A stretch of 62,906 bases of DNA, the filler included. It is 9 parts of 9 records of this genome, joined end to end, with 100 filler letters (N's around TTAATTAATTAA, not from the genome) between each part and the next. Parts side by side here need not be neighbours in the genome. Positions count along the whole stretch, not along the records: positions 32,998 to 38,752 come from SRR31147125_186415; 8 more parts are not named here. One strand, 5' to 3'. The notes under the pieces are model-generated. The model did no database searches and was not told the origin of the DNA. It saw only the letters and a list, made by a program, of their open reading frames with translations. A program made the translations under genes and the position numbers. Each line of letters begins with the position of its first letter. The first letter of the stretch is position 1. This document shows positions 2,448-58,590 of the stretch, piece after piece.

Positions 2448-2464
2448 ATGTGGATATGTGTATT

Positions 2465-5400
2465 CTATCGTGTCATGATGGGGGGACGGAGTTCCGCACT
2501 ACTGTTTGCGCCTTCCAGTTGACTTGTTTGTTCAAAGAATCGATCCATAAGTGCCTGAGCCTGTGTGGCCAGTCGTACGAGACATGGAACCTCCTGCCGA
2601 GCCAGCGTAGTGACCACACGAACAAAATCCAGCGCAAAATCACGAAGATGGGTTCTTCTGTTTGGCCCCCACAAAATGAGACTGGCCAAACGAAAACGAA
2701 TCAGTCAATCTCAACCCACATGTCCTCTTCACAGAGCAAAAGGGCTAGAAGAGAAAAGGCGTCTTCCAGAACCGATACCCTGTTTCCCTCCCTCATAAGA
2801 ACAAAAGAAAGAAAAACAGTAGTGCGTGGCGTACCGGTCCGGAAGTGCCTCAGCACCATCTTGTAATCGCTCAAGTTCATCACGCAAAAGAAGAAGGAGA
2901 CGTGCACAGACAACCTGATGAGTTGGTTGATTGCGCTGGATACGGAATGGGTAGACAGCAGCAGCACCTCGGTTCCTTCATCCTTGCGATGATGAATCAC
3001 GTCAAATCCGTCCTCATGGTACCTGACAGGAATGAGTTAGTGCGACTACACGAGGCAGACGCTGAGCACACAAGGAAGCCGCCATTAACATAAGCATCAC
3101 ACTTCGACGGAGGGTAAACACCTATCCAATGATCGTACGTGAGCAAGCCGTCATCGTTCGAAAGGCACACACAAACCTCCTTTTCTGTCCCCTTTTGTCG
3201 GATGTTCAGAGTCTTGGAGGACAAATCAAGCATATTCTCCTCTGGTTTAGGCCAACACCGAATTCCGTCAAAAACGGACCGACCTGTCCGAAGTGGGCCA
3301 CTACGTTTGGGGACATGCGTTCGTGGGTGGTACACACTTTTTAAGCAGATTCGAAGGAGTTTGATGAACTTTTGCTTGCAGGCAGCAGGTGTACTTCGAA
3401 TAGTTTGGATGGCTTCTCGTCCAATAAGAAAGGGAACAAACCTAAAACGGGTTCCTGAGCCAAGAACACCACCACCACTACCACCACCACCGCCACCAAC
3501 ATCTCCAGCTCTCCCTCCTTTGCCTCCTCCGCAATGGCCACAAGAATGTCGAAAGCCAAGCTGAGGATGGATGGTTCGCGGAGCAAATTGGGGAAAACGG
3601 ACAGAATCTGCCACCCCAGATGTCAGAGCACACGTACACACATATATACATACATATATACCTGGCCAAGAATAGCGTGTGGAGGCTTTGCAATGTTGGC
3701 CCGAGACGATCCGACTCGAAGAGGGGGGAAATGATCATTCACATCTTCTGCTCGAAGGAATACACGAGAATTGTCGGGATGGGGTACATAACCTTCCAGA
3801 TCGTCCGGAAGATCCAATTCCTCACTCTGTCCATCCTCTTCCACCACATTCACACGATTGTCCTCGCTCTCCTGCGCACTCCTAACGTCTTCTTTGAGCA
3901 ACGCCCATCGGCACTCAGCACTACACACAGCCACAGTTTTCAGAATGCGTAGAACAGTTTCAAAGAACTCCAAGGTTTCAAAACTTCTATCCCGTGCACG
4001 GCGGAGACAACTATCAAGTACAGGGAGGAGATGTGTGGCCGGAAGCCCACTGATGGCCACTTGTGCAAATCCCGTCATCAGGGAATCCGCCAACGAGTCC
4101 CCGTTATGATACACGTGTTCTTCGGACCCGAGGGATCGAGGGGCATCAACGAAACCGAGACGATTGAGAAGCGAATGAGCCCGCTGCCCTGATTGTGTAG
4201 GATCTCGTTGAAGAAGTGTGAGAAGAGAACTCGCACACGAAGAGAGGATGGCTTGAATCAGACACAGATTGGACTTGGGCGGATACAGAAGTTAGCATCA
4301 CCACCCCCTCCCAACAACACCCATCACATACCGAGGGCGATGGATGGGGTAAAGGAAGTGGAATGAGATGTTTTGGATCTGGTTCTTCCGTGGAACGACG
4401 ACTGCGCACCGATCCCACGGCCGTTCCTTGTGGAGACATAAAGGTAATGGTGCGCGCTGCCTTGGGAGGTGTACGCTCCCCAGCGCTGGGAGCAAGATCA
4501 TCATTCGTCCCTTGCGAGAGAACAAGTGAGAGTGGTCGCCGCCCCCTGGGGCTTCCTGCACGGAGTCGTTTTGTGGAGGAACGCGAACCGCGTGCGCCAA
4601 CAGACTCTGGCGGCGCAAGGACAGGAGTGGTGAGTCCCAGCGATAGTGTAGGTGCTCCTCCACACTTGGCCGGTGACACAAACTCATCCTCGGGGATCCT
4701 GTGAGGGCCTGTCGATCAGCCAGCTCGTGAGGCGAAGACAAGTGCACGCGTACATTTGTTGCATGAATTCCTTGACCTCACCATCCAAAGCATCAATGCG
4801 CAGCTGGGAACGCCGTAATTCCTCTTGAAGTCGTTGTTTTGCACGATCGGCTTCGATGATTTCATTTTGCTACGGGACCATTGATGAACGTACGAACGTA
4901 CGCACACGCACACGCACCATTTGCGTACCTTGAACGTCAGTTGGACTCGCAGAGTACGGAGTTCATCATCTCGCTCGTGTTTCTTGCGTTGGTCCCTGTC
5001 TCGCTCATCAACCAACGGGGTTGCACAAGAATCGCCCTCTCGCACCGTTCGGAAGCGTTCAACTTGAGATCTCTGACCTCCAACTTCAAATTCGCCGCCT
5101 GCAACACACTCAGTTGCGTCATCTATCCCAGCGCGTCGTACCTCCGCCTCCTTCTGGGATAGCTTCTGTCGTAGAATATCTAAGGCACTCTCAGCTTGTC
5201 TCAGACGTGCATCGAGAGTGGTTTCAGGGGCAACGACACGTGCAGGCTGCTACCGTCGTTCCCGTTGTTAGGGATCGATGGTCTCACGTACACAACAGAA
5301 CCAGGAACCTTCTCATCAGGGACAGGAAGCTGTCCATCCCGCAAGTAGTCATGAAGAGCTTGTTCCCATCCCATAGATGGAGGAAGGCCATTGGTCTTCA

Positions 5401-21244: not shown

Positions 21245-21658
21245 TCACGTGGTTGTCGAATGCAGAGTCCGGGCGATATAATCCTCGACACTTTTCTGCA
21301 GCGTCGTTTCGGCGAGCTGCGCGCAGTGCAGGTGGGATTCGGGAAGCTCCCCCACCAGGTCCATGATGGAGATCATGTTGATCTTCTTCACTTCCCCGAT
21401 GGTCTTGTCCCGCGCCAGCATCGCCGCGCCCTCGACACAGAGCTTGCTATAGGCACACCCGTCGGTCCAGCAGTGCGTGGAGGTGACAACGTTGTCCTCC
21501 ACCCGCAGACCGATCTCCATCGTGTCCCCGCAGTTGCCGGCCACCTTCGCGATCCCCTCGGGACTCTCGATAACCGGGTTTCCAAAGTAGTGCAGCAGAA
21601 ACCAGACAAGTCCCACAGCCAGGACCAACAGAATTGCAACCAACAGATTTGTTACCAT
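21245..21658 (-). CDS. IscU/NifU-N-like scaffold with an N-terminal transmembrane helix
   Basis: LLVAILLVLAVGLVWFLLHYF, then GNCGDTM, DGCAYS and LPESHLHCA. Confidence 0.85.
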   Translation of the reverse strand: MVTNLLVAILLVLAVGLVWFLLHYFGNPVIESPEGIAKVAGNCGDTMEIGLRVEDNVVTSTHCWTDGCAYSKLCVEGAAMLARDKTIGEVKKINMISIMDLVGELPESHLHCAQLAETTLQKSVEDYIARTLHSTTT

Positions 21659-21708
21659 AACTCACGGCTCGGCCTGGAAATTCCAGGCTGGAAACGGCGC
21701 TATCAGGA

Positions 21709-22173
21709 TTATCTGCTCCTCTCCCTGTCGACAACACTGATCATGTAATTGTTGAGGGCTTCCTGTAACGCACTGATTGCCAGTGTTGCGCAATGTGTCT
21801 CCTCAGAGGGAAAGGTGCCGATTGTGTTTAACACATCTTCAGGCGTCAACTCAAGCAATTCCTCCGGGTTTTTGCCATGGGCGAGCTCCGCGGTAAAAGA
21901 CCCGCATAACGCACTCGAACCGCAGCCGTCGGTCGTGTAGCTCGCCTTTGCAACCCGTTCCCCGTTGAATTTCAGGTAGATATTGATGGTGTCCCCGCAG
22001 CCGCCCAGCACCCCGCCGGACGCATCCGCGTCGGCGTCTTCGAGCGGGCCGTTGAACCGGGGATTGCGCCACCGCTCGAAGCCTTTTTCACCGTATGCCT
22101 GCCGCGCATCATCGAAGACCTGGTCCTGCAGCTGCATGACTATCGCATCAAACGCTTTATCGGTCATAGACAT
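21709..22173 (-). CDS. IscU/NifU-N-like Fe-S scaffold protein
   Basis: NPRFNG, GCGDTI, DGCGSS and EETHCA. Confidence 0.88.
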   Translation of the reverse strand: MSMTDKAFDAIVMQLQDQVFDDARQAYGEKGFERWRNPRFNGPLEDADADASGGVLGGCGDTINIYLKFNGERVAKASYTTDGCGSSALCGSFTAELAHGKNPEELLELTPEDVLNTIGTFPSEETHCATLAISALQEALNNYMISVVDRERSR

Positions 22174-22196
22174 AATTTGCGTTCCTCAACTCCTCT

Positions 22197-22562
22197 CTAC
22201 CAGTGCGCGTCGGCATTTGCCGCATCGGTGTATTCAACCTTGTCAGCCTTCAACAACTCCACCGCCTCGGCAACCGTTCCCCCGACATCGCTGACCACCT
22301 TCACACCGGCGGCCTCCAGCGTCTGGAAGGCCTTCGGCCCGCAGTAGCCCGTCATCAGGACGTCGGCCCCCTTGTCATGAACCATGGTCGCCGCCTGAAT
22401 GCCGGCCCCTTTGAACGAATTCACATTGGCTGAATTGTCGACCGCCTCGAAGGCCATGGACTCGGTATCGACGATCATGATGTAGGCCGCACGCCCGAAC
22501 CGCGGGTCGACCTCGCTTCCCAACTCCGTTCCTTTCGCTGATATTGCAACTTTCATCGTCAT
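22197..22562 (-). CDS. NifB/NifX-family protein, Orange protein (ORP)-like
   Basis: KVAISA...VDPRFGRA...GAGIQAA...TGYCGPKAFQTLEAAGV. Confidence 0.88.
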   Translation of the reverse strand: MTMKVAISAKGTELGSEVDPRFGRAAYIMIVDTESMAFEAVDNSANVNSFKGAGIQAATMVHDKGADVLMTGYCGPKAFQTLEAAGVKVVSDVGGTVAEAVELLKADKVEYTDAANADAHW

Positions 22563-22585
22563 GCTCCTTCAAAATGTCTCTATGC

Positions 22586-22969
22586 TTATTGACCGCCACC
22601 GCCGCCGCAGACCTGGTCATCGGATATCATCGGCAGTTTCCCTGCAAGCAGGTCCTCAACCACCGGCCGGATGTCGATCCGCTCCGCGTCATGATACACG
22701 TCGATACCGACCTGCCTGAAGCCCATCAACGGACGCATCCCGATTCCGCCGACGATCAGCGCATTCACGTTGTGCGATGAAAGCAGGTTGACCGGCACCA
22801 TGCAGCCGCCCTGGACATGCTCCTGGTTCTGAATCGTGGTTACTGACGTGATCTCCCCGTTCTCTGTGTCGATACAGGTGAATACGTCGCAATGGCCGAA
22901 ATGGCCGGCTCGCTGGCCGTCAAGTCCGCCGTTTCCTAAAGATGGTACTGCTACACGCATTTTCGTCAT
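22586..22969 (-). CDS. NifB/NifX-family protein (His/Cys-rich)
   Basis: RVAVPS...AGHFGHCDVF...EHVQGGC...LIVGGIGMRP...CGGGG. Confidence 0.88.
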   Translation of the reverse strand: MTKMRVAVPSLGNGGLDGQRAGHFGHCDVFTCIDTENGEITSVTTIQNQEHVQGGCMVPVNLLSSHNVNALIVGGIGMRPLMGFRQVGIDVYHDAERIDIRPVVEDLLAGKLPMISDDQVCGGGGGQ

Positions 22970-22982
22970 GGGTTTCTCCTTG

Positions 22983-23885
22983 TTATTTGATTGTTGGAAT
23001 AACGCGCATTTCTTCTTTCGTAAACTCTTCCGTCGACAGCACGCGCCGCCACACGGTTTCCACTGTAGATGCAAGCTGAGAGTCGGGATCGTACTCCTGG
23101 ATCGTCTGCGCTTCCACCATTGCTTTTGTGAAGGCAGGATCGAAAGGAATCCGGCCGACCATCAGCAGGTTCCGCTTCCTGGTTTCCGCCTCGATCACGC
23201 CGGTCATATCCCGGTTGAGGTCGTACTTGTTGATGCAGACCATTGTCGGGATCTTGAAGTGGGCGGCAAGATCGGCCACCCGCTCCATGTCGTGCAGGCC
23301 GGAAAGCGTCGGTTCGACGACGATCAGGACGGCGGTTGCACCTGTTGTCGCGGCAATCACCGGACAGCCGATGCCCGGCGGGCCGTCGGTGACGATCATC
23401 CGGTTCCCGTTCTTCTCCGCCAGCTCACGGGCCTCTTTGCGGATCACGCTGACCAGCTTGCCGGAATTTTCTTCGCCGATCCCGAGGTGGGCATGAACCA
23501 TCGGTCCGAAGCGGGTACCGGAGACAAACCACTCGCCGCATTTGCGGGGCAGAAAGTCTATCGCATCTGCGGGGCAGAACGCGTTACACACACCGCACCC
23601 CTCGCACTCGACCTGATCGACTACGAAATCGTCACTGATCGCGCCAAACTGACAGCGCTCGACACAGATCCCGCATTCGGTGCAGCGCTCCGGATCGATC
23701 TCGGCTTTGCTTCCGCCGATAAAATCATGCTTCTGTTCGACCCGGGGGGCGAGCAGCAGGTGCAGATCGGCTGCGTCGACATCGGTATCGCACAACATGG
23801 AATTCTCGGCCAGCGATGCAAATGCGGCGGTGAGACTTGTCTTACCGGTACCGCCCTTGCCGCTGATGATCACCAGCTCTTTCAT
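22983..23885 (-). CDS. MinD/ParA-like P-loop ATPase with a 2x[4Fe-4S] insert
   Basis: SGKGGTGKT, DTDVDAADLHL, CTECGICVERC, CEGCGVCNAFCP and DGPPGIGCP. Confidence 0.93.
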   Translation of the reverse strand: MKELVIISGKGGTGKTSLTAAFASLAENSMLCDTDVDAADLHLLLAPRVEQKHDFIGGSKAEIDPERCTECGICVERCQFGAISDDFVVDQVECEGCGVCNAFCPADAIDFLPRKCGEWFVSGTRFGPMVHAHLGIGEENSGKLVSVIRKEARELAEKNGNRMIVTDGPPGIGCPVIAATTGATAVLIVVEPTLSGLHDMERVADLAAHFKIPTMVCINKYDLNRDMTGVIEAETRKRNLLMVGRIPFDPAFTKAMVEAQTIQEYDPDSQLASTVETVWRRVLSTEEFTKEEMRVIPTIK

Positions 23886-24736
23886 TGAACCACCTCCGAC
23901 AGAGCGATATACGCACTGATTTTAGCGAACAGCTCACGGTATTTTTCACGCCACTCCGGCGACTCTTCCACCAGCAGCCGGCCCTGTGAGTACCACTCGG
24001 CAATGGTGCGCTCAAACGGTATCTCCATCAGTACCGGAATGGCTTCCTTCTCCGCATACCGGTACACGTCATCGGTGCCGATATCGGCACGGTTGATTAC
24101 CAGACCGCACGGTTTACCAAGCTGACGCAACGCCTCGACCGTCAGCTTGAGGTCGTGCAGTCCGAACGGTGTCGGCTCGGTGACCAGCAGCACGAAATCG
24201 CTGTCCTTCATAGCCGCTATCGCAGGGCAGGATGTCCCCGGAGGCGCATCGATGATGACCAGTTCATCCGGCTGAATCAGCGACTGCACCCGTCCGATCA
24301 GCGGCGGGCTCATGGCCTCACCGACGCGGAGCAGGCCGTAACTGAAGGTGATTTTCCGCCAGGTCCCGGTTTCAATCGTCCCCAGTTTCCGCTGGCCATC
24401 GCTGATTGCCTGTTCCGGACAGATCATCTGGCACCCGAGACAGCTGTGACACAGCTCCGGGAATACCAGTACCTTTGTACCGATGACCGCCAGCGCGTTG
24501 AATTCACAGAGTTTCGCACATTCGCCACACCCGGTGCAGCAGTCCTCTTCTATGCGCGGCACGAAGGTCGACTCCACGTTTGATTCCAGATTTTCCGGCT
24601 TGATGAACAGATGGATGTTCGGTTCTTCGACATCGCAGTCAAGCAGCCTCAGATTTCTGTCGAGGCTGGCCGCGAGATTGGTTGAGACGGTCGTTTTACC
24701 GGTTCCGCCCTTGCCGCTTGCCACACTGATTATCAT
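23882..24736 (-). CDS. MinD/ParA-like P-loop ATPase with a 2x[4Fe-4S] insert (paralog)
   Basis: ASGKGGTGKT, DCDVEEPN, CTGCGECAKLC, CHSCLGCQMICP and DAPPGTSCP. Confidence 0.93.
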   Translation of the reverse strand: MIISVASGKGGTGKTTVSTNLAASLDRNLRLLDCDVEEPNIHLFIKPENLESNVESTFVPRIEEDCCTGCGECAKLCEFNALAVIGTKVLVFPELCHSCLGCQMICPEQAISDGQRKLGTIETGTWRKITFSYGLLRVGEAMSPPLIGRVQSLIQPDELVIIDAPPGTSCPAIAAMKDSDFVLLVTEPTPFGLHDLKLTVEALRQLGKPCGLVINRADIGTDDVYRYAEKEAIPVLMEIPFERTIAEWYSQGRLLVEESPEWREKYRELFAKISAYIALSEVVQ

Positions 24737-24767
24737 TGCATTCACACAAAGTTGTCGCGTTACGCGA

Positions 24768-25139
24768 TCAATAGATTCTGGCCAGACAGTCACGGAGTTT
24801 TTCCGCGTCCGCCTTTCCCGGTGTCGGGGACAGCTGCATGAGCACACCCAGTCCCTCAGTAACCTCGTGAAACTCCTCTGCGGGGAGAGGCGACACCAGC
24901 GCTGTATTGCTAAAGGGATTTTTCATTACCACCCGTTTGATGAGATCGAGCCCGCTGCCCTCAGCCACCTCTTCGGCGGCAACGACGACATCCACCTCGT
25001 TCGCGGCCGCGGCAGCGACCACGTCGTCTCCGGAGCTCAGGCACTCTATCTTGCAGGAAGCTTCATCTCCCAGCGCAGCACTGAACTCCTCGAAATATCC
25101 ATTCTGGCTGCTGACACATATGATGGTGAGATCTTTCAT
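24768..25139 (-). CDS. Atypical receiver-fold protein
   Basis: CheY-like pattern (SSGDDVV...VDVVVAAEEV.EGSGLDLIK) without the phospho-acceptor Asp. Confidence 0.7.
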   Translation of the reverse strand: MKDLTIICVSSQNGYFEEFSAALGDEASCKIECLSSGDDVVAAAAANEVDVVVAAEEVAEGSGLDLIKRVVMKNPFSNTALVSPLPAEEFHEVTEGLGVLMQLSPTPGKADAEKLRDCLARIY

Positions 25140-25471
25140 GGTTTCTCGTCTAGTCCTATTTTTTTTGTATCGTCTACCGGCTGCAGTTGCTCCGGGATGT
25201 TTTCGTCGTTCCGGGTGTCTTGAAGAGGACCGGGGGCCCTGTCGACCCGGCCCAGAGCCTGCAACCGCATCTTTTCCACCTCGCAGACAATCAGTCCGGC
25301 AACGGAAGAGAGGAGCCTGCATACCTGCGAAACAACAGACCGGATCCCCCCGGTCTCTGCCATCCGGCCATCGCTGCAGCGCTGATCCCGCAACTGCTGC
25401 CCCATCCGGTTTGAGCAGTGCCTGCCGCCGGGACGTTTTCCTCTTCCCGTTCCAGTGGAGCGTCGGTTCAT
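25136..25471 (-). CDS. Hypothetical protein (Gly/Arg-rich N-terminus)
   Basis: Fills the operon gap with a GGAG RBS and an ATGA overlap with the next gene. Confidence 0.55.
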   Translation of the reverse strand: MNRRSTGTGRGKRPGGRHCSNRMGQQLRDQRCSDGRMAETGGIRSVVSQVCRLLSSVAGLIVCEVEKMRLQALGRVDRAPGPLQDTRNDENIPEQLQPVDDTKKIGLDEKP

Positions 25472-25508
25472 CGTTTCTCCTCCGACCTCATCGGGCAGCA
25501 ATGGCCCC

Positions 25509-32997: not shown

Positions 32998-35900
32998 CAG
33001 TAAGCACAGCCTCTTGTAAACCAGTTGCTTCTTCGACCGTCATATCCCCGGCCTTCACAGCTTTATCCGTTGCCGCGGTTATCAATGTTTCAAGAGCCAT
33101 GTCCGTACCCTTGAACTGCATCAGCTCCTCGGGGGTCGCTTCGTTCCGATCGATCGTGAAGGTGTACTTGGACTTTGGATCAAAGTTCCCTTTCAGGTGA
33201 CCTTTCAAGTCGCCTTGCACCTTGGATTTAAGAGACTCGGCCCCTACCCTCGTTTTGGTAGGCCTCATGTAGACCTGAACCCGGTTGCCGTCCTTGTCCT
33301 TGGTATAAACTCGGACAAACCATTCACCGTCAGGCCGCACCCTGGGAGCATAGCCCTTCTGGAATCCCCACTCCTGCTTAAGTTCGCCCAAGCGGGTTTT
33401 GTAGCCCTTGAGCTTGATGAAAGCCGCTTTCAGGTCATCATCGATCTTCGGGTCATCCTTGACCTGTTTCACCGTTCTGCCAGCTTCAATAAGGCGTTTC
33501 AGGTCGGGATAGAAAGGGCTTGCCTCGTAAGGGATCAGGGCCAGATCGTCAAGCTTCTGGAACATGGTTTCACGCGATACCCGAACCACCTGACGGAACG
33601 CACGATAGGCAGCAACAACCCCTTTACTGAATTTGGTGTTCAGTGGGTTTTTCCCGCTTATCAGGTTACTATCCTTGAATGCCTCATTGAGGGTATCCCC
33701 CTCTTTGATAATCCGGTCGACCTGCCGGCGCTCTTTTTTGGTCAGGGAGGAAAGTATTTCCCGCATACCCTCCAAGCCTGCGTATTTAAGTTCCTCGTTC
33801 TTCTTGTCCAGGTCGTAAACAATAGCGGTTCGCTCTTCCCCCTCTGAAGGTTCAGATCCACAACCGCCCGGCGCCCGGCGTTACCCTCTGACCCAAACCA
33901 CGGATTGGACATAAACTTACCGGCCAGGGCCTTGACGCGCTCGGGAATAGTCCCCGACGGGTTTTTTAAGCTGGCACGAACCATGTTCTCGACGTTTTTC
34001 CGCCAGCCAGGGACCTCTTTATCTAATTCGGCATCCATGGTGGGGTTCCCGGTGGAGATAGGACGGCGGGAAAAACGGATATCGGAGATCGAAGCGTCCC
34101 AAGTTCCGGAGTTGAAAGCTGATTTAATCTGATTGGGAGAAAAAACGATGTAAGAATCCGCTGCGTCCGGGAACATTTCTTCAACCATGTAATCAGACAT
34201 TTCATTTAAAATATCACCATCGACTCCATCCGGACCAAACGGGTCATGGTCGCCTTCCCTGCGGTTAAGATAAACTACCCCGTCATATCCGGCGTCCTGG
34301 ATGATCTTTTGAAGCTCTACGTTAGTTTCTTTATCATCAAACCGGGCATCGTAGAATTTGGCGGCTTCTTCGTCGGTCAAAATACCCATATCAACTAATT
34401 GCGGCGCAACCTCGGAACCGGAAAACTGGCCACGGTCCTCAAGTCGCAACGGGTTTTTGATGGAGAGATACACAGGCATGACATTCCCTCTTTTTTCGGT
34501 AAAAATATCTGCCTGCTCCTGTGTTCCGAAATGCGATCCTAAATCTTGATCGGTTCTGAATTCGCTGAAATTGGCTTGAGTTCCGTGATATACCATTAGC
34601 GGGTTGCCTTCTCCATCCACAACTTTGGACTTCCCAAACCACTTCTTAAAGGCATCTTCTTTTCTGGACGCCTTGGGTTTTCCGTCGGTCCTCTTCCCCC
34701 TGTCCCTTTTCAACAAACCGCTTCGACTTGGCAATCAAGTGGACGATATCGGCATCCGAATATTTGAGATCGATATTCAGGCTCCTGATCCAATCTTTGA
34801 CAATGGCAATGATCTGCCGGATAAAGCCGTTCTGTTCGCCACGAGCCGCCATTTCCGCAAGCACTTCCTCAGCCGCTTCGCGCCGTTCCTCTTTCTTGCT
34901 CATGTCCAGCTTGAGCATTTCGGCCATGGCCTTGACTTCCGGCCCCCTGACCATAGCCACATGATCAAGTACGGGGTTCAGTTTACCCTTGGGAAGCACC
35001 CCGCGAAGCCCGTAATGTCCACGGGTTTCATGAATGAGGACATGAACAGCGCGGGCATTGGTCGGGAGGTTGGCCGCAATCATGTAAACCGTGTTGTTGC
35101 GGGGGCTGAAAAACGCCTCATCCAGTAAGGTTTCATCATTGACAGAAGCCGTGTAATCCAAAATATCGTTGGGAAGGTCCTCGATACTCTCTAAAACCTT
35201 TATTCGCGGTGCGTTTTCCCAGGATTCGGTGAACTCGCCAAAAAGTTTTTCAAGCTCGGCTTTTCGTTCCCTAAGCCGTTTAACGTCCGCCAGGAGAGAT
35301 TTGTTTTCCTGAACAACCTCTGATTCAATAAGACGGCGAGAAAAAAGAGGGTCCCCGTTGACAGAATCAATTAGAGCCGATAGACTCATTTTAGAACCCG
35401 GTGAACCTTGGAAGGGCAACGGAGCTTTAGCTACGACCCTCCTATCTATGGCGCCGGGTTCGACCATTTCATACCCTGCAAAAGTGTAAAATTTCCTTTC
35501 CCTAACCCAGAATATTCTTTCATCACCAGCTTGATAGCATAGATTTCGTTATCAATTTTTGCTGGGACCACAGCATATTTAAAACCACTGATGTCCACTT
35601 TCCCTTTGCGGTCTCCAACTGTTTTGAAAGGAACTGCAGCTTCAGCAAGTTTTTCCAAGTTACGGACAAGGCTCATTCTTTTTGGGTCTCTTCTCCCAAC
35701 ACTTAAAGCCTTGGTCCTTCCTTTTGCGGAGAACTGAATCTCACCAATCCTTGGGTTCTGAACAGTTTTCCCCTGCAAATTTTCACGATAAAACTCATTG
35801 GCCGTAGCCCAAAGTTTTTCAGGCTCAACATCAAAGGGCTCAACATCTACAATAGGGATTTCCTCGTCCTTTACTCGCCTGGACGCCTTGGGAGCTTCAG

Positions 35901-38752
35901 CATCTTCTTTTTTCGGTTGTTCCACTACCTTCGGCGCTTCAAACTCCTTACTTTCATAAAGCCTGACCCCGGTTTCGTCCGTAACCTTGTCATAAGGGAT
36001 GTTGGTTTTTCCCTTCTCATCTTGCCCGACTACAAACCACCCCTCTGCCGTCCATTTGTGGCCTACCACTTCAAACGGCTTTTTGTTCCAGTAGACTACC
36101 GTTTCAGTTGGGGCCCCACTTCTCAACCATGCAGGGGGAGGTACCGGGTTGGCTTCCATATCCGCCATAAGGTCAGCTTCAATTTCAATGGCCGCCTGCA
36201 GGTCATCAGCCTGTTGAAAGGACTCGGCTGCAACCTCTTTCATTCGCTCAATGGAGCTTTGGGCCTTATTGATTTGCTCATCCAGCTTTTCAGCCCGCTT
36301 GATTTCGTTCCGAATTGAGGCTTCGATAGAAGCGAGACTTGCGGCACCGGTGCTGACTTCCCATTTCCCCTTTTCGCCATAAGGGATAAAAACCTCTAAA
36401 CCAGGTCGGTCTGACAATCCGCTGAAATGCGCCTTGAGTTCCAGGCCGCCGACACTTCCAACCAGAACACCCTTATCCCCCATCCGAAGATTTTCCTCGG
36501 CAAAAGCGGTCAGTGCCTCGTCAAAGTCTTTCCTCTTCCGGTATTCCTTCCCGCCGACATAGCCTTTGAAGTTATCCCCCTTATTGGATGCCAGAGCGTT
36601 CTTGATGTTTTCTACAATACCGTTGGCCTGAAAGTATCGTTCTTTTTCGGTCGTATCCTCTTCAACGTTATTCTCCAACCTTCGGATATTGCCCCTCGCT
36701 TCGGAAACAGCGAAAGTATGAAGCCTTTCCTTCATCTGGAGCTTTTCAACCTTTCTCCTGGCCTTTTCCAGCAAAAGAACGCGGGGATCTCCGGAAGCAT
36801 CGGCAAAGGTTTCCAGGATATCGCTCTGTTCATCCGCCGCGGCATCCCCTTCGATCACGCGCACATCATCGTTTGCCCTGAGAAATTCCTTGATGAATCG
36901 ATCTTTGATGGAAAGAATCTGCCAGCGTCTACCGTCCAGCCGGTCGGTAATGTAGCGGTATTCCAGCACGGTGTTCCATTGGTTGGCCTGACGGTGGCCA
37001 CGGCCATTGCGTTGCTCGAGATCCCCAGGCATCCAGGGAGCATCAAGATGGTGCATGGCCCGGAGATTCCGCTGCATGTTGACGCCAACCCCAAGGGTTT
37101 GAGTGTTCCCGACAACAACCCGGATTTCCGTCCGGTTCATGGCATCAGCGATTTCCTTGCGCTTCTGCTTGCTGGTGCTCCCTGTTACAACTGCAATCTG
37201 TTCCCTGGGAATCCCGCCGGCAACAAGCCGTGCAACCATGTCATTAACAGGGGAGAAAACCGGAAAACTGAATCTTTGAGCCTCCCCGTCCTCGGTCCTG
37301 GACGTCCTGGTTGCTCGGGTGCCTATACCGGTCTCTGTAAATACCGCCTGGCAGGCTTTCTCGTGAGAGTTGTAGATTTCCAGAATGTTTTTGACCGCCC
37401 TGGATACCTTGCTGCTCTCATGGTCCTCGGCCTGTCCTTCCTGCCCGGCCAAAGAACGGCCATCCAGGAGACGGACATCAAGACTCGCCTTATTGGCTTT
37501 GCCCTCAATGATGATAGGCGAATGCTCATCCCCGGATTTCAACCAGTCGTATCTTGCTTTGGGTGATGCTTTGCGGAATTCACCAGCCAGCTTCTGAAGC
37601 CTTTCAAACTCCCTGACCTGCCTGGGTGTCATGTCCGCGTTGTCTACGATGATTTTCTTATACGGCCGGTTTGTGGCTCCTTCTGTCCGGCTATTTTCAA
37701 GTTCAATACGCTCTTTTTCGGTGAGCGTTTCATCATCCATCTTTTTCCCGGATTTGGTTTCCCGCAAAGCCATTTCCGGCATATCGTCGGAAAACACCAC
37801 GTCCATATACTGGCCAAGCATCCGCCGCAGATCCGAGACGTTGACGAAAGAAGCCAGGCGGACAACGTTTTCATATTCCCCAGCTGCGTTGAGTTCGATG
37901 TCCTGAACCTCGGCCGCAAAAGCTCCAAACCAACCATCCCAGGCATCTACACCGATTTCCGACATTTCGGATTCCATGATGTACCGCATGTGATGGTAGA
38001 TTTCCGTCAGGGTATTGGTGATAGGGGTCCCGGTGAAAAGATGAACGTTCCCCTCCTCGTTGTTCGCCCGGATATAACTGGTCAGGAACCGCAAGGCGAT
38101 GGAACGATTGGAGGTTGCGGTATTCAGACCCTTCATTCTCATCTTCGTGGCAATCGGAGGCTTTTTGAACTCATGGGCCTCATCAACCATGAGCATATCA
38201 ACCCCAAGTTCCTCGAAGGGAACGGCGCTTTCCCTTGAGGCCCGTTGCCCCTGTTTCCGAATGTTCTCCAGAATCTTGTTCCTGGCTGCAACCAAGTCTT
38301 TGGCCGTAGGTGACCGGACCTTTTTCATTTCTTCCGGATCGTCCATCATGTTCAGATCCAGATCCACATCGTCATCCGCTGCGGCATCCAGGGCCTCGGC
38401 CTCCAGGGCTTCAATTTCCCCCTGTGCCATTGCCATCAAGGTTTCTTCCCGGAAAGTAAGGCGGTCGATCAGGGAATGAGGCATGACCACACAATCCCAA
38501 TCGTCATTGGCAATCTGCCGCAACTTGATATCGATGGTGTCCGGTGAAAGGTTGTCCACATAGAGGATCTTCGCCGCCGGGTACATCTGCTGAATCTCTG
38601 CGGCCACGGACGCACTGTTGGCGTTATGAGCCATGAGCAAGGGTTTTCTGGCTATCCCATAGCGACGGGATTCAACAGCGATACCGCCCATGGTAAAGGT
38701 TTTGCCCGTCCCAACCTCGTGAGCGTTGAGAGATTTCCGGGTAACAATCCCC
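32998..38752 (-). CDS. Giant phage/MGE polyvalent protein, both ends truncated: DarB-like SF2 helicase, LPD3-like domain, zincin metallopeptidase, ADP-ribosyltransferase (ART-PolyVal-like) and an uncharacterised helical region. Three homopolymer frameshifts.
   Basis: AHEVGTGKT, VDEAHEFK, TGTPITN and LEQRNGRGHRQ; LQGKTVQNPRIGEIQFS...FYTF; LIHETRGHYGL...AEEVLAEMA; FKKWFG.SKVVD..GNPLMVYHGT...PVYLSIKNPL...GYDGVV...IVFSPNQIKS. Four ORFs join with single-base changes at 35488-94, 34696-700 and 33838-42. Confidence 0.85.
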
Positions 38753-38852
38753 NNNNNNNNNNNNNNNNNNNNNNNNNNNNNNNNNNNNNNNNNNNNTTAA
38801 TTAATTAANNNNNNNNNNNNNNNNNNNNNNNNNNNNNNNNNNNNNNNNNNNN

Positions 38853-40811
38853 CCTTAACGCCACCCATACATCGGCTGCATTGGTGCCGTTGGTAGGCAG
38901 ACCAGTGGTCGATTCAACCGCCTGGAGTCGAATACCGGCCGGCTGCAAAAAGGGGCGCGGCGGCTCCCCTTCGGTCGCTCTGATCATGAACTGTGCCCAG
39001 ATCGGGGCAGCACCGCGGCTGCCGGTAATGCCGACACCGTTTCGGTCCAGCAGCCTCTCGTCACGATCATGGCCGACCCATACGGAGGTGCAGAGGGTCG
39101 GCGTAAAACCGGTGAACCAGGCATCGTGGTAACCGTTGGTAGTGCCGGTCTTACCGGCAGCCGGTTTCCTGAACCCCATGCGCCGGACGACCTGTCCGGT
39201 GCCATAATCCACGACTCCCTTCATCATATCCACGACCTGGTAGGTCAGGCGGCTGTCCAATGTCTGGGTGCCGCTGACGAGATGCTCTTCCAACAGCTCA
39301 CCGTAGGCATCTTCAACCCGCCACACCGCAAACGGTTTGTAGTGCATCCCCTCAGCGGCAAATGTGGCGAAACCGGAGGCCATCTCAAGCGGGCTTACAC
39401 CGGAGGTGCCCAACGCCACCGAGTAGACCGGGGCCAGGGGGCTTTGAATACCGCAGCGCTGTGCGACGTCGATGACCGCTTCGGGGCCGGTGCGCGCCAC
39501 GAGTTGGGCGGCAATGCTGTTGATCGATTGGGTCAGCGATTTTTTCAAAATGACCGGCCCCTGATAGCTGCGCTTGAAGTTCTGGGGACGCCAATCGGGG
39601 GCGCCGGCTATCGGAATGCGCACCGGCTCATCGACAAACACCGAAGCCGGCGTCACGTCCAGCTTCTCCAACGCAGCATAGTAGAGGAAAGGTTTGAATA
39701 CCGACCCGGGCAACCGTCTGTTCTGAACGGCCCGGTTGTACTCGCTCTCAGTGTAGTTGCGGCCGCCCACCATCGCTTTGATGGCGCCTGAGTTGACCTG
39801 CAATGCCACGAGCGCACCTTGTGGGAGTTCGTCGGCCTCTTCCCGCGCGGCTCCCATTTTTTTGGCCAGCTGTTGCAGCCCCTGAGTCAATGACTCCTGT
39901 GCAGCCCTTTGCAGTTGGGGATCCATCGTAGTGGTCACCTTCAGACCACCGTGATAGACCACCTGGGCGCCGTAGCGCTCTTCCAGATATTTCAAAACCC
40001 AGTCCATAAAATAACCGCCCATCGGCCCCGAATCGCCCTGACGGGCAAAGGTCAACTCTTCGGAAGCCGTTGCTTCGGCCTCTTCGGTTTTGATGAAACC
40101 GGCGGCTGCCATGCGCCCAAGCACCACCTGCTGGCGGGCTTTGGCGCGCTCCAGGTAGCGTAACGGATTGTACCGGACAGGGGACTTGGGCAATCCGGCC
40201 AGCATAGCCGCTTCGGCCACCGTCAATTGGCCGGATCGCTTTCCGAAAAAAGTTCTCGCCGCCGACGCAACACCCTGAGCGCGTGGGCCGAAATAGATCT
40301 GGTTGACATAGGCTTCCAGAATTTCACGTTTGCTGAACTGGGACTCGATCTGCAAAGCGACCAGAAGCTCCCTGAATTTGCGCCGATAGGTCTTCTCGAA
40401 ACTGAAAAAGAGGTTCTTGGCGAGTTGCTGGGTAATGGTCGAGGCCCCCTGGACACGGCCGCTGAAGAAGGTGCTCCAGAGCGCTTTTATCAGTCTCACC
40501 TTGTTGATGCCGTGATGTTCCCAGAAGCGATGGTCTTCGGTTGCCAGAATTGCCTCGAGGAAGGTGATGGAGACCTGGTCCAGCGGTACGTAATCGTGGC
40601 CGCCGATCTGGAGGACCCGCTCGCCGTTGGCAGCATAGATCTCCGTTGGGGGCGTTTCGATAATACGCCGCAACGGCTCGGGTACACTGGGCAGATCGCG
40701 CACGCTCCAGAAAAAAAGCAGGACGCCGGCCAGCGCCGCAATACCGGCCAGGGTAAAGAGCATGGCCAGACAACCCGTCAGCCAGCGAACCAGACGCACC
40801 ATCGGGGTCAT
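38853..40811 (-). CDS. Class A penicillin-binding protein (PBP1A family), 3'-truncated
   Basis: TEDHRFWEHHG, GASTITQQLAKN and RKFRE transglycosylase motifs; GSVFKP (SxxK), SIN and KTGT transpeptidase motifs. Confidence 0.95.
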
Positions 40812-52100: not shown

Positions 52101-55100
52101 TGAGGATCTTGGCATTACCCGATCAGATAGGTACAAAGGGATACACACACTCTCGCTCGCTCACGTTTTCTGTTGAAGCTGTTCGTGAAAAGAATATGCA
52201 TCACCAAGAAGCTTCCATAGGAGTTGCACGGTTGGATCCACACGGGATGCGTGGAGAAGAACGGTTTCACATTGACAAACAGTCACCATGGCGCGTTCGA
52301 GCATGCCATCCTTGTGAAACACCCTTTGTGTAGACATGCATCACACACACAACCTTCGTTGGCGCACACACACACTCACGCACACACCTCGCCAAGGACA
52401 ACAGAGCTTCTCCCCACCCTGCCCAACCAGGCAAAAAGTCGGGTTTCCGTGTAGTGAGGGCCATGAAACCACACGCGGCTTCATCGAATAGACCCAGTTG
52501 GAGTCGGACCCCAGCCAGCTGACATCTATGGAATCCTTTTTGTCAGCTTGGCTCAATCGTTCGAGCGGTTCGCAGTTCGCACTCGGCAAGTGTGGAGTCA
52601 GGCCGAAGCTCGAGGGCCTTCTCAAAGGCCTTGACCGATGCCACATATTTCCCCTTGCAAGGGAGATGAGCACCATCCAAGACTTGATTCAGATTCATAT
52701 CGTACCATGAGACGGTAGGTCTCCGCTAGACCAATCCAGCATCGCACATCCGAGGGATCCACACGAAGTGCGTGTTGAAAGGAAATCATTGCTCGTTGAT
52801 ACTCTTCCGACCTCTGGGGCGCAAGGGTTGGAAAGGCAGCAAACGCTACACAAGGAAGGGACACACATGTTGTTCGAAAGCCAGACGAACCCATGCCCAT
52901 TTGGCACGGGGCGAACGTTCGGAAACCTGCAAATCCACCCGAGTCACATCGCGACAGACATACAACGGCCGCAAAGCACCTCGTTATACAAGTTAACCTC
53001 GAGAGTTCGCTGCCCACTGGCACGGTACAGATCTCCCAGTGCCTCACCGGCCTGAAACCATTGAGTACTGCACACGAACGCCACACACACACACACACCC
53101 TCCCACCTCGCCCTCAAGTGGATCGAGACTGACAGCCTTAGCATAGCATCGCCGTGCTCTCCCTTCATCTTTCTCCACGTGCAGATACCAATGACCAAGA
53201 TATGTGAAGTTGGAAGCAATACCCGGATCCAGTTTCGCAGATTGGAGCAAGTGCATATAGGCATGCTCCTTCTCCGTTCGATAGTTCCCTGCCGAGAGAT
53301 GAGTATACATAGGCTCTAAGGACAAGAAGTCCCTTTGCTTACCGCCTTCGTGCCACATAATCACGCCCATGCGGTGAAGATGAAGGGCATGTGTCGGAAC
53401 AAGGGAAAGAGCGGCCTCTAGATGGCGATGGGCCTCTTCAAGCTGGTCTACAGCAAGACACAACCATCCGAGCTCACTGAGAGCCCAATCATGGGACGCT
53501 TGTATCGAAAGAATGGATTGAATGTGTTCCCTGGCCAGATCTGGGTCACGGAGGGAGAGAGCAAGAAGTGCCAGTCCCTGCAATGCAGTCATGGTTATAG
53601 AGACTCTCACCCCATTCATCAGGTACCTGAAGTGCCTCGGTGTTTGTGCTGTCTGCGAGCAGAACACGTTGATATGCCTCCTTTGCCTTTTCAGTAGCAT
53701 TTCCCTTCCGATAGGCGTGTGCAGCAGCCAGTTGGAGTCGAATACGCAATCTAGAAAACGTTATCACACCCACACCCACACATATTCAAGGCAATCTCAC
53801 TCACGTTCGCATGCTCCAACCCTCATTCTCCTTACACAAAGCTGCTTGTTCTCCATTGCGCACAGCTTCTAGAGTTTGTTGGAAGGAATTCTCCGCCAGG
53901 TGTACTTCGGCGAGAGTGGCCCAAGCGCTCACAAGGGTAGACTTCCCCTGTAACCCACGATCTAGAAGGGTCTGTGCCTCCTCTCTTCGATGGTGACGAG
54001 CCATTTCCATTCCTAGAAGAAGATGGGGAATCCATTTCTGTGGTGGTGTAGGATACGTACCGAGGTAACATGTGCCCACCGCGTTTCTAGGAAATGAGTG
54101 AGCCAATCTCTGACCGATACGCGCAAGTGTGATCCCTGTTCAAGAAAGACCACAGATCATGATTGTCGCCGTTTCCCTTTGTAAAAGAAAAAGAAACCAA
54201 CCACAAATTCCAGGTTCCTTCTCTTCCGTCAGCTCCATCAACACCTCAAACGGGATAGGCGACACGGGATGGCGTCGTGCAAGATCTGTAGCGGTCGTTA
54301 CCAAAAGCTCCCTGAACTGGAGTCCAAGTTACGAACACAGACAGAACACAACCACGATCCACTCACCCCAGCCCTCTGTGGCCCGTCACGGCTTGCTTGC
54401 ATGCGTCCACGGATTCTGTGAACAAAAGCACAAACAATCTCTGCGGGACAGGGCAGATCTGAGCGGAGTGCGGCGTCAACCACAACATCCACCTTTGGGA
54501 GCATCGGTCAGTCCACGGAGCGCGTACAGTGTGTACAAAACGTCTCACCCTTGGATCAGATAGTCGCTCCACACACACAGCGGCCTGCAAGGTTGATCGC
54601 ACATATCCCTCGTCTTCCGTCTGCGTCTCGCTCGCTCCCTTCGCACGTCGCCGCATCTCTTTCACCATACGCTTCTCCACCTCTTCCGTAATACGATCGT
54701 TCTCAATTGCAAGTGTGAGTTGGGCAATATGGACGTGAACGTCGTGGTCACTAGAGGGATCAGCCTTCACGGACACCAGATCGTGCCATCGCGCCAGTGC
54801 CTATGTTCACGTTTCAATAGGAAAAGATCTCTCCACGCCCTTTCGCAATGCAAACCTCATCTCTCTTGCCCAAGACTTCACACACACCGGCCAGCCGTCG
54901 TCTGTATTCGATATTTCGCTGTTCATCTTTGCTATAGGGACCCACAAAGACAAAGAATTACACAGTGGTACTGTATCCACGAGATACGAACCCTGTTGTC
55001 ACGTCCACAAGAACACGAAGCACTTCGTCCATCTTCACGTCTTCTTTCGTTTGTGTGTAAATCTCAAGCAGGCCCTTTCCAACAACGACACGTCACTCTG

Positions 55101-55653: not shown

Positions 55654-58590
55654 AGAAAGCCGTCATCAGGATGGGCCTGAAACGGAGCTTGGCCGCTTCA
55701 ATGGCCGAATCAAAGAGGGAGTGTCCCTCATCAAATTTTAGTTTGGCGAATTCCACAATCAGGATAGCATTTTTTGCGGCCATGGCGATCAGCATGACCA
55801 GGGATATCTGGGTAAAGACATTGTTCTCATAGCTGAGACTGAAATAGCGGAAAACCAAAATGGCCGTCAGCGCACCGAAAATGGCGAAAGGCGTCCCGAG
55901 CAGAATGCTGAAGGGCAGGGACCAGCTTTCGTATTGGGCCGCTAGAATCAGGTAGACAAAAATGAGAGCGAACCCGAAAACAATCGCCCCGGAGCCGGCT
56001 GCCTCCTTTTCCTGATAAGACATGTTGCTCCACTGGTAACCCATCTCCGGCGGCAGGACCTCACTGGCCACCTCTTCCAATGCGGTCAGGGCCTGGGCGG
56101 AGGTGTATCCCGGGGCCGGGGAGCCGGTCACTTCCGTGGCACGGAAAAGGTTGAAGCGGTAGGTGAAGTCGGGTCCGGAGGTCTCCTTGACCTCGACAAA
56201 AGCCGAAAGGGGGACGCTCTCCCCGTCCTGGTTGTTGATGAAGAAAAGGTCGATCTGATCCTCGCCCTGGCGGTACTCGGGCTCGGCCTGGATATAGGCT
56301 TTATAGAGCCGTCCGAAGCGGTTGAAGTCGTTCACGTAGGCCCCTCCCAGAAAGGCGCTGATAGTTGTATACATGTCGTTCAGGGAGATGCCCGCCTTGA
56401 GGGCCTTGTCGCGGTTGATCGAGATCAGTTTCTGGGGGACGCTGGGCTGGAAGGTGGTAAAGATCGCCCCGATTTCCGGCCTCTGGCGGGCGGCCTGGAT
56501 GAATTTCATGGTCTGCTCGCCGAGGAAGGCCGGGGTGTTGCCGGCCTTGTCCTGGAGCATGATGGTGAAGCCCGAACCGCTCCCAAGGCCGGGGATGGCC
56601 GGCGGTCCGAAAGCGAAAACCTGGGCTTCATTGACCCCGAAGTGGAACTGGATATTCAACGCATTGACCAGGTCCTGTACGGTTTTTTCCCGCTCGCTCC
56701 AGTCGACCAGCGACAGGAAAATGAAGCCCGAGTTGGAGGACATGCTCCCCGACAGCATGCTGTATCCAGCCGCGGTGGTTACATATTTCACTTCCTTGTG
56801 CTGCTGGATGATCTTCTCGACCTTTTTGCACACCACATCCGTTCTCTGCAGGGAAGCGGCGTCGGGAAGCTGAAGGTTGACGAACAGGTAGCCCATATCC
56901 TCTGCCGGAATGAATCCGCCTGGGAGCAGTTTTCCGACCACACCCGTACCCCCAGCGATGATGGCGATGAAGACCAGGCCGAGGGTGATTTTGCGCGTGA
57001 CAACATTGGTGAAACTCATGTAGGAGGTCGCGGAGCGGTCAAAGGCCTTGTTGAAGAGTCCGAAAAATACTCCCAGTGGCCCTCTGGCTGGCTGCTTTTT
57101 TTCAGCAGCAGGGAGCTGAGCGCCGGGCTGAGGGTGAGGGCGTTGACCGAAGAAAAGCAGACCGAGACCGCCACGGTGATGGCGAACTGCTGGTAGAGGC
57201 GACCCGTGATACCGCCCATGGCGGCCACCGGAATGAAGACCGCCACCAGCACGAGGGTGGTGGCGACGATCAGGGCCGACACCTCCTTCATGGCCTGGAC
57301 AGTGGCTTCTCTCGGATTCATGCCGTTTTCGATATTGACCTGCACCGCCTCGACCACCACGATGGCGTCGTCGACCACGATGCCCAGGGCCAGCACCATT
57401 CCCAACAGCGACAGCACGTTGACGGTAAAGCCGAGGAGAGGGAAAACGGTGAAAGCCCCCATCAGGGAAACAGGTATGGCCAGGGTCGGGATCAGTGTGG
57501 CCCGCCAGTCCTGGATGAACAGCCAGACCACGAAAATAACCAGCGCCAGAGCTACCAGGAGGGTGACCACGATCTCCCTGATCCCTGCGGTGATCGGTTC
57601 CGTGGTATCAATGGAGATATCGTACTTGATGCTTTTCGGGAAGGATTTCGCCAGATCCGCCATGGTGTTTCTGATCTGTTGGGCCAGTTCCACCGCATTG
57701 GAGCCGGGGGCTTGGTAAAGAGCGATGATCGAACACTCCTGGTTATCCAGCCGGGTGAAAGCGTTATAGGTTTCCACCCCCAGTTCGACCCTTGCGATAT
57801 GCTTGATCTTGACCTGGGATCCTCCCTCCGTGGTTCGCACCACGATCTCCCCGAACTCCTCCTCCGACTGCAGGCGGTCGGGGAGACGCACCGTGTAGGT
57901 GAACTCGGTGCCGGGCGGTGCCGGTTCGGCTCCGAACTTGCCGCCGGGAACGATGACGTTCTGGGCCTTGATGGCCTCCATGATTTCCGGGATGGTGATT
58001 CCGAGCTGGGCCAGCCGATCCGGTTTGATCCAGATGCGCATGGAATAGTCGGCTGCACCGAGTACGCTAACCCGTCCGATCCCCTTGATGCGGGCCAGTA
58101 CATCCTGAATATTGATCAGCGCGTAATTTCCCAGGAAGTCCTGGTCGTAACGCCCCTCTTCCGAGGTCAGGGTGACGAGCATGAGGATGTTGGGAAGGGA
58201 CTTCTGGGTGGTGACTCCGAAGCGCTTGACCTCTTCCGGTAGTTTGGCCGTGGCTGCGGAGACCCGATTCTGGGTGAAGACGGTGTTCATGTCGGGATCG
58301 GTGCCGACCTCGAAGGACGTCTGGATGTTCATGGTACCGTCGTTGGCGTTGGTCGACTTCATGTAGATCATGTTGTCCACGCCGTTGATCTGCTGCTCCA
58401 GCGGGGTGGCCACCGACTGTTCCACATTCAGGGCATTGGCGCCCGTATAGGTTGCTCGTACCTCAACGATGGGGGTGATGTCGGGATATTGCTCAATCGG
58501 GAGCGTGAGCATTGAAATTGTTCCGACAATGGCCGTGATAATGGCGATGACAATGGCGACGATCGGCCGTCTGACAAAAAAATTACCCAT
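55654..58590 (-). CDS. HAE1/AcrB-family RND efflux permease, 3'-truncated, frameshift at A7 run 57096-57102
   Basis: FFVRRPIVA, ATPLEQQINGV, GIVVDDAIVVVE, LAAQYESW, KNAILIVEFA and LRFRPILMT. Confidence 0.95.

Follow-up and report, generated by a model that had tools for sequence, protein, structure and literature searches.

DarB-Like Polyvalent Proteins and the Fragment under Study

The DarB protein of phage P1 (YP_006479.1, 2255 aa) is annotated as 'defense against restriction' in the P1 record and is the archetype of the methylase-helicase dyad found in polyvalent proteins (Iyer et al. 2017, PMC5512222). The dyad family, the LPD3 domain, the Tox-ART-HYD2 (H-Y-D) type of ADP-ribosyltransferase (ART), and a HEXXXH variant of the metallopeptidase MPTase were all described for polyvalent proteins in that work (Iyer, Burroughs, Anand, de Souza, and Aravind 2017, PMC5512222). 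Giant proteins of this kind are carried by Bcep22-like podophages of Burkholderia and Ralstonia, which fall in the protein family PHROG 10089; for one of them, JC1 gp69 (4515 aa), 51 unique peptides were recovered from CsCl-purified virions, and its gene closes the virion module, ahead of the lysis genes (PMC9144972). Here we describe a gene fragment of the same PHROG, found in a 62,906-base stretch of DNA (the window). The window consists of nine contigs with N44-TTAATTAATTAA-N44 spacers between them, and the fragment is exactly one of these contigs (32998-38752, minus strand, 5755 bp), open at both ends. The contig is, with a probability of roughly 0.8, the middle third of a single intact giant polyvalent-protein gene of a tailed phage or prophage, DarB-like and broken in the assembly.

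Restoration of a Single Reading Frame

In the deposited sequence, the contig showed four successive stop-free stretches on the minus strand with end-to-end overlaps of 86-136 bases: P0001 (38751 to 35449, 1101 aa), P0002 (35548 to 34649, 300 aa), P0003 (34734 to 33745, 330 aa, first codon TTG), and P0004 (33880 to 32999, 294 aa). The three frame breaks between them all lie within 1.7 kb, and uninterrupted homologs bridged each of them collinearly. Break 1 (35500..35502, plus strand) was bridged by the relatives P0147 (residues 622-765, then 751-807) and P0232 (2290-2405, then 2413-2726), break 2 (34696..34700, plus strand) by P0156 (4269-4493, then 4519-4707), P0208, and P0161, and break 3 (33838..33842, plus strand) by P0141 (3003-3053, then 3057-3360).

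A public sequencing run, here called X1, contained 99% of the sampled words. Its contig, taken from Logan, is one record of 43,195 bases with a depth of 14.3 that spans the whole fragment, at its positions 33844-39602. Compared with the window, this contig showed 0 substitutions; its differences were four extra letters, namely one C after 33837, two after 34695, and one after 35499. The C-runs at breaks 1, 2, and 3 thus have 3, 5, and 5 letters in the window and 4, 7, and 6 letters in the X1 contig. When the four letters were added by script, all 1919 codons fell in one frame, with no stop among them. As uninterrupted homologs bridge all three breaks and the X1 letters restore one frame, the breaks are consensus errors (homopolymer undercalls) of the deposited assembly. 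The fragment (32998..38752, minus strand) is therefore an internal part, about 1919 codons long, of one giant polyvalent-protein gene, cut at both contig ends. It starts 13 residues ahead of helicase motif I, and the X1 contig extends 33.8 kb farther upstream. A second run, X2, yielded four contigs of some 200 bases, with a depth of 2-4, and a third run, X3, yielded none.

A preliminary description of this DNA, made by a model from the letters, had read the contig as one frame of more than 1900 aa, open at both ends, and had expected an open reading frame (ORF) caller to split it into four pieces; the 1919-codon frame and the four overlapping frames agree with both statements. It had also placed three single-base homopolymer slips. 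The three slips are real and lie in C-runs, but the middle one is a slip of two bases. The correction of the indels that it had proposed as a check was obtained from the X1 assembly, whose contig supplied exactly the four missing letters and restored one frame. For annotation, this means that four 'hypothetical' ORFs become one intact gene of a known giant phage protein family.

Family Placement and Comparison with Known Systems

P0001 matched PHROG 10089 ('DarB-like antirestriction') with an E-value of 1.5e-235 over profile positions 2368-3361 of 4647. In the phage collection, 116 records carried a relative of P0001, and 21 of these covered at least 80% of it. In a collection of 5.8 billion proteins, 7995 candidates were scored, of which 2415, all between 1928 and 5000 residues long, were relatives at E <= 0.001. 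The 120 relatives listed showed 51-65% identity over the helicase; many came from contigs of 40-65 kb and others from bacterial chromosomes, and some bear the source names 'PLxRFG domain-containing protein' or 'N12 class adenine-specific DNA methylase'. In the genome-contig search with P0001, 82 of 185 candidate stretches were relatives (best 58% identity), and none of the 185 was a near-identical record. Over the helicase, no relative closer than 65% was found in the phage, plasmid, protein, viral-contig, or genome-contig collections. The contig had no Megablast match among phages or plasmids, and the viral-contig scans with P0003 and P0004 gave no relative.

On the evidence of its sequence, the fragment is a member of the already described giant 'DarB-like' or 'PLxRFG' protein family, whose members have 2000-5000 residues and come from phages and prophages of ~45-65 kb. 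A polyvalent protein combines several unrelated effector or enzyme domains in a single polypeptide of a phage or conjugative element; here, Helicase_C, LPD3, ART-PolyVal, and a zincin-like module occur together in one frame, and a helicase of the SWI2/SNF2 type, as in the DarB-like dyad, was recognized by motifs I, II, and VI, by Helicase_C, by PHROG 10089, and by P1 DarB. The PHROG match and the continuous frame bear out the earlier call of a DarB-like polyvalent protein in one chain. The further suggestion that the locus is the best candidate for an undescribed system was not supported, in view of the E-value of the PHROG match, the 2415 relatives, and the presence of the HEXXXH peptidase, the H-Y-D ART, and the dyad in the earlier account (PMC5512222).

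Among the closest known systems is gp31 of Pseudomonas phage vB_PaeM_USP_18 (QLI49405.1), with which we group USP_25 gp31. USP_18 gp31 was the best phage match, with 57.3% identity between P0001 residues 2-943 and its residues 2338-3267. It is encoded by a 14,844-base gene (L001 4990-19833; 4947 aa), is annotated as 'hypothetical protein', and is followed by genes for a holin, a lysozyme, and a membrane protein, which is the same gene position as that of JC1 gp69. Downstream of the helicase it carries an ART-PolyVal domain with 30% identity to that of the window. Between helicase and ART the two proteins differ: USP_18 gp31 has LPD23 and HExxH-form motifs (recognized by eye), whereas the window has LPD3 and one HExxGH motif. 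USP_18 gp31 ends in the NF032893 'tail-700' PLxRFG domain, which was not found in the window fragment. The 'DarB-like antirestriction' proteins of Ralstonia phages aligned over 99% of P0001, but with only 27-28% identity. The helicase core is also collinear with P1 DarB (P0001 residues 72-324 against 955-1190, and 555-627 against 1483-1556), with BLASTP E-values of 6e-10 and 3e-10 and 23-35% identity over short pieces only. P1 DarB is also much smaller, at half the size or less.

Helicase, Post-Helicase Region, and LPD3

The superfamily 2 (SF2; SWI2/SNF2-type) helicase or translocase core occupies 36652..38751 (minus strand), as placed by motifs, Pfam, and PHROG 10089. Motif I (GTGKT) lies at 38698-38712, motif II (DEAH) at 38173-38184, and motif VI (QRNGR) at 37000-37014, all on the minus strand. 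In the Pfam search of P0001, Helicase_C was found at 1.9e-11, and SNF2-rel_dom scored 4.2e-4 and 20 bits, under its cutoff of 24.9 bits. The SF2 helicase call of the preliminary description is thus upheld by Helicase_C and the three motifs, with SNF2-rel_dom remaining below cutoff; every motif quoted in that description, here and in the other modules, was found where it had been placed.

The helicase is followed by a region that we call MID (35842..36594, minus strand; P0001 residues ~720-970), for which no family name was found in the libraries searched. The 57% match to USP_18 gp31 also spans MID, and 122 of the 277 relatives sampled for module order start their architecture with helicase and MID.

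LPD3 (Pfam PF18798) lies at 35494..35820 on the minus strand (P0001 residues 978-1086), with its last few residues past frame break 1. It scored 7.4e-19 and 68.5 bits against a cutoff of 27, over profile positions 4-110 of 114, as the earlier LPD3 call had anticipated, and was collinear across break 1 with the LPD3 domains of P0147 and P0232. None of the PBECR families surfaced in the general Pfam scan, which was no test of the 'BECR-like' label that the preliminary description had given to LPD3. Short LPD3 homologs were searched for and none was found.

HExxGH Zincin-Like Module

A putative zincin-like metallopeptidase module of the HEXXXH variant lies at 34694..35266 (minus strand; P0002 residues ~95-285). 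It contains HETRGH at 35015-35032 and AAEEVLAE at 34853-34876, both on the minus strand. Alignments of 17 and 28 sequences showed invariant columns at H114, E115, G118, H119, G121, R123, A167, E168, and E169 (domain numbering), giving the consensus HExxGHxGLR followed by AAEE 54 residues downstream. When 1.84 billion cluster representatives were searched in full with HMMER, the HExxGH domain was found in 2575 of them at E <= 0.001 and in 937 at E <= 1e-10, and the 150 matches listed were mostly proteins of 1000-5700 residues. Among the nearest ESM Atlas clusters of the domain, 29 of 30 were unnamed 'hypothetical protein' clusters.

Curated models did not name the module. P0002 matched no Pfam family at E <= 0.1, with the MPTase-PolyVal model included in the search, so the MPTase check proposed in the preliminary description came out negative. 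Four short proteins made mainly of the HExxGH domain likewise matched no Pfam family at E <= 0.01. NCBIfam gave only a chance-level row for P0002. The PDB sequence search with P0002 returned only coiled-coil noise (SSO1/2, E >= 0.004), and the alignment profile (A1) returned one row with an E-value of 0.68. The module is therefore best regarded as a very common peptidase-like domain without a curated model in the Pfam-A copy searched.

An AlphaFold2 model built from the 28-row alignment showed a mean predicted local distance difference test (pLDDT) score of 87.0 and a predicted template modelling (pTM) score of 0.76. In this model, strands were formed by residues 56-60, 86-89, and 94-98, the HExxGH motif lay in helix 105-120, and AEE lay in helix 160-176. 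In a zincin core, a beta sheet precedes a helix with H-E-x-x-(x)-H, and a later helix supplies the Glu ligand. Of the top 20 chains aligned to the model by VIA-align, at least 12 were zinc metallopeptidases by title, all aligned over model residues ~30-121; the titles included predicted zincin, jannalysin, PPEP-2, anthrax lethal factor, DPC-repair protease, ArdC, Wss1, abylysin, PepO, and HtpX. On the sequence and the predicted model, the HExxGH module is likely a zincin, mainly because the metal-site motifs are invariant; the fold support was weak but consistent. The zincin call of the preliminary description was accordingly right in HETRGH, in the downstream EE, and in the zincin-like character of the module, but the motif is HExxGH (HEXXXH) and not the canonical HEXXH, and no Pfam model stands behind it.

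The defining zinc-site motifs of dipeptidyl-peptidase III (DPP III; MEROPS M49) are HEXXGH and, some 50 residues farther along, EEXR(K)AE(D). The window module has a likeness to it in its invariant HExxGH and in AAEE(V)LAE 54 residues on, which is a resemblance at the level of motifs and may be convergent. DPP III was absent from the Foldseek and VIA-align lists and from the PDB sequence searches of the module, and a relationship is unsupported.

ADP-Ribosyltransferase Domain and C-Terminal Piece

A predicted ADP-ribosyltransferase domain, ART-PolyVal (Pfam PF18760), lies at 34108..34617 on the minus strand. In P0003 it scored 2.4e-21 and 77.4 bits against a cutoff of 31.2. The motifs YHGT (34579-34590), YLSIKNP (34450-34470), GYDG (34279-34290), and NQIKS (34120-34134) were all present on the minus strand. 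The family is described with a triad of H on strand 1, Y on strand 2, and D on strand 5 (Iyer et al. 2017, PMC5512222), and the corresponding residues in the window are H50, Y89, and D151 of P0003 (34585-34587, 34468-34470, and 34282-34284, minus strand). From 111 ART segments in 68 relatives, the 60 segments longer than 100 residues were aligned with the window. The triad columns held H in 53 of 60, Y in 43 of 60 (F in 12), and D in 52 of 59, and the window keeps all three. The residue ahead of the conserved QIKS was E, T, N, S, or D in the relatives; as this position varies, the N of the window is no defect. With the family above cutoff and the triad intact, the ART call made earlier was confirmed.

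The start of the C-terminal region (32999..33832, minus strand) contains GYAPRVRPDGEW at 33320-33355, a possible counterpart of the PLxRFG motif. P0004 aligned with residues 3057-3360 of P0141 (3939 aa) at 34% identity (E 9e-53). No Pfam or NCBIfam match was found for P0004, and no NCBIfam family for P0003. The NF032893 ('tail-700') model, which is about 680 residues long, did not match P0004 at E <= 0.01; the contig ends about 105 residues past GYAPRVRPDGEW. This model scored 750-770 bits in USP_18 gp31, P0013, and P0232, and P0141, the best relative of P0004, is also without it. An ESM Atlas lead that P0004 is LPD39 (0.92-0.94, recognition 1823) was not confirmed by a local jackhmmer search, which linked P0004 only to P0141 and P0151 and not to LPD39-bearing proteins.

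Order of the Modules

The modules of the window follow the order SNF2-type helicase, MID, LPD3, HExxGH module, H-Y-D ART, and start of the C-terminal region. For comparison, 277 fetched relatives (the four ORFs of the window excluded) were scanned by phmmer with the contig's own modules; such a single-sequence scan is insensitive and missed, for example, LPD3 in P0013. The order helicase, MID, LPD3, peptidase, ART was seen in none of the 277 relatives sampled, and the supplementary architecture lists of PMC5512222, which lie outside this comparison, might hold it.

Close neighbours of this order were observed once Pfam domains were added. P0013 showed helicase (2093-2792), MID, peptidase (3054-3235), LPD3 (3277-3391), ART (3468-3599), LPD39, and tail-700. 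P0014 showed helicase, LPD3, a helix-turn-helix, ART, and LPD39. P0232 showed LPD3 (2307-2407), peptidase (2413-2726), and ART (2793-2923), in the order of the window, followed by LPD39 and tail-700. Module mosaicism is typical of the polyvalent family (PMC5512222). The suggestion in the preliminary description that the domain order may be new is thus correct for the relatives sampled, but it carries little weight, because P0013 and P0232 have the modules in orders neighbouring that of the window and shuffling is the norm of the family.

FSR Motif at Module Borders

Short motifs were observed at the module borders, all on the minus strand. FSRR lies at the border ahead of the peptidase module (35333..35344) and again after the ART (34063-34074), and PKASR[RK] lies before LPD3 (35875-35886) and before the ART (34660-34671). 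In 252 fetched proteins of more than 1500 aa, FSR occurred 384 times, compared with 108 expected by shuffles (3.6x) and 127 occurrences of the reverse, RSF (3x). ASR was tried as a border motif and showed no enrichment (418 against 384 for the reversed RSA), so it was dropped and only FSR was kept. Among 156 HExxGHxG[LMIF]R sites, 40 had their nearest upstream FSR at a distance of 50-100 residues, and 44 had their nearest downstream FSR at a distance of 100-150 residues. FSR also occurred within 40 residues after the C-terminal motif of the ART in 26 of 55 cases, or 40 of 55 with a looser pattern. Around it, G, D, N, P, A, and S were abundant, as they are in linkers.

From these patterns, FSR may be a linker or a cleavage signal. 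A tentative extension, which we consider doubtful, is that the HExxGH module belongs to a large protease family cutting the delivered chain at x-F-S-R linkers, and that the gene encodes a polyprotein with a cleavage code. No mention of such a site was found in PMC5512222, where the words 'cleavage site' are confined to the reference list and 'linker' and 'processing site' are absent. The FSR borders would make the proposed self-processing directly testable.

Proposed Role and Alternative Explanations

The full-length protein probably has 4000-5400 residues, and the element, probably a tailed phage or a prophage, would measure about 45-65 kb. From its relatives and the literature, the missing N-terminal part would hold an N6-adenine methylase (with LPD36) ahead of the helicase, which together would form the DarB dyad. 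On the analogy with P1 DarB and T4 Alt drawn in PMC5512222, the virion would carry the protein and deliver it into the cell together with the DNA. Once inside, the methylase-helicase part may counter restriction, the ART may modify host proteins with NAD+ (ADP-ribosylation), and the peptidase may cut the chain into separate effectors. Roles of the dyad, the ART, and the MPTase were argued by Iyer et al. 2017 (PMC5512222). The giant proteins of this family take about one fifth of their phage genomes and are thought to be delivered with the DNA against host defence; the wider family matters because of this share of the genome and this presumed anti-defence delivery.

Several observations weigh against reading the contig as part of an intact, DarB-like phage gene with these functions. 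The contig carries no other gene, and its phage context is borrowed from relatives of at most 57% identity. The methylase, the N-terminus, and the C-terminal tail lie off the contig, and the roles proposed for the protein rest on sequence and analogy. P1 DarB, the sole functionally studied archetype, matched only the helicase core in BLASTP, and LPD3 and the post-helicase region were unmatched. For the peptidase, Foldseek of the model against the PDB gave nothing at E <= 0.001 (first row ArdC, E 0.42), and VIA-align against 48,161 chains gave top Z-scores of 4.5-5.9, where a Z below 8 can reflect a common arrangement. Run X1 is perhaps the window's own sample, in which case its contig is an independent assembly and not an independent sample; the platform is unrecorded. 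Finally, a PHROGs scan of 24 Pfam-negative ORFs from the eight other contigs matched no phage family, so the window supplies no phage context.

The alternatives explain the data less well. That the contig belongs to a conjugative element (an integrative and conjugative element or plasmid), with the polyvalent protein delivered by type IV secretion, is improbable, but it is the rival we rate highest: 1388 plasmid records held a relative of the helicase, 676 of them on conjugative plasmids, and the methylase-helicase module and the MPTase are common to both kinds of element (Iyer et al., PMC5512222). Yet the plasmid matches reached only 24-30% identity among the 20 rows listed, none of the 1388 covered 80% of the query, and the closest relatives listed (51-65%) came from a phage, from contigs of phage size, or from prophages, in line with the PHROG 10089 match at 1.5e-235. 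Effectors fused to a defence helicase of the host (DISARM DrmD-like or another SNF2 defence protein of similar kind) are suggested by the best NCBIfam rows, which were DISARM DrmD and a PLD anti-phage protein. These rows fell far below their cutoffs (DrmD, NF038317, 40.3 bits against 610; PLD protein, 38 against 1100) and covered the Helicase_C part only; the other defence-helicase rows also stayed at or below 40 bits against cutoffs of 500-1100, and the whole-length match was to the phage DarB-like PHROG. We give this explanation very little credence.

Two further explanations concern the frame breaks. Three breaks within 1.7 kb of deposited sequence could be real mutations in a decayed pseudogene of a dead prophage, but this is now quite unlikely and largely refuted by the X1 contig, which showed 0 substitutions and exactly four frame-restoring letters. 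All the breaks fall in C-runs, the sequence is otherwise undamaged and free of in-frame stops, the catalytic residues are intact, and an AcrB gene on another contig is broken in the same way. The four frames of the deposited sequence, with the TTG first codon of P0003, might also be taken for four separate genes or for one gene with programmed frameshifting. The homologs are single chains over every junction and the X1 contig has one frame, by which this explanation is refuted; of all those considered it has the least to recommend it. A single intact phage or prophage gene broken by assembly errors therefore remains the preferred reading, and the contig may be a piece of a prophage or a phage contig binned with a bacterium.

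Other Contigs and Assembly Quality

On the remaining eight contigs, the genes are of ordinary bacterial types (G6PD, pyruvate kinase, PBP1, an RND pump, and Fe-S or nif-like proteins). The AcrB/RND pump gene (55655-58590, minus strand) is split over two frames, 57016-58590 and 55655-57085, one covering positions 2-503 of the Pfam ACR_tran profile and the other 500-970. This split is probably another homopolymer error of the assembly and suggests, as a single example, that indel errors occur across it; anyone working with the assembly should be prepared for homopolymer indels in further genes. A7 and T5 runs were seen in or near the overlap of the two AcrB frames. Further same-strand frames overlapping end to end were noted at 3000-4715, 23885-25487, and 52344-53760 (minus strand), where other indel-broken genes are possible. 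At 21248-25487 there are two NifU_N-like genes, a Nitro_FeMo-Co (dinitrogenase cofactor-binding) gene, and a ParA/MinD-type ATPase with 4Fe-4S motifs, a cluster that looks typical of an anaerobe.

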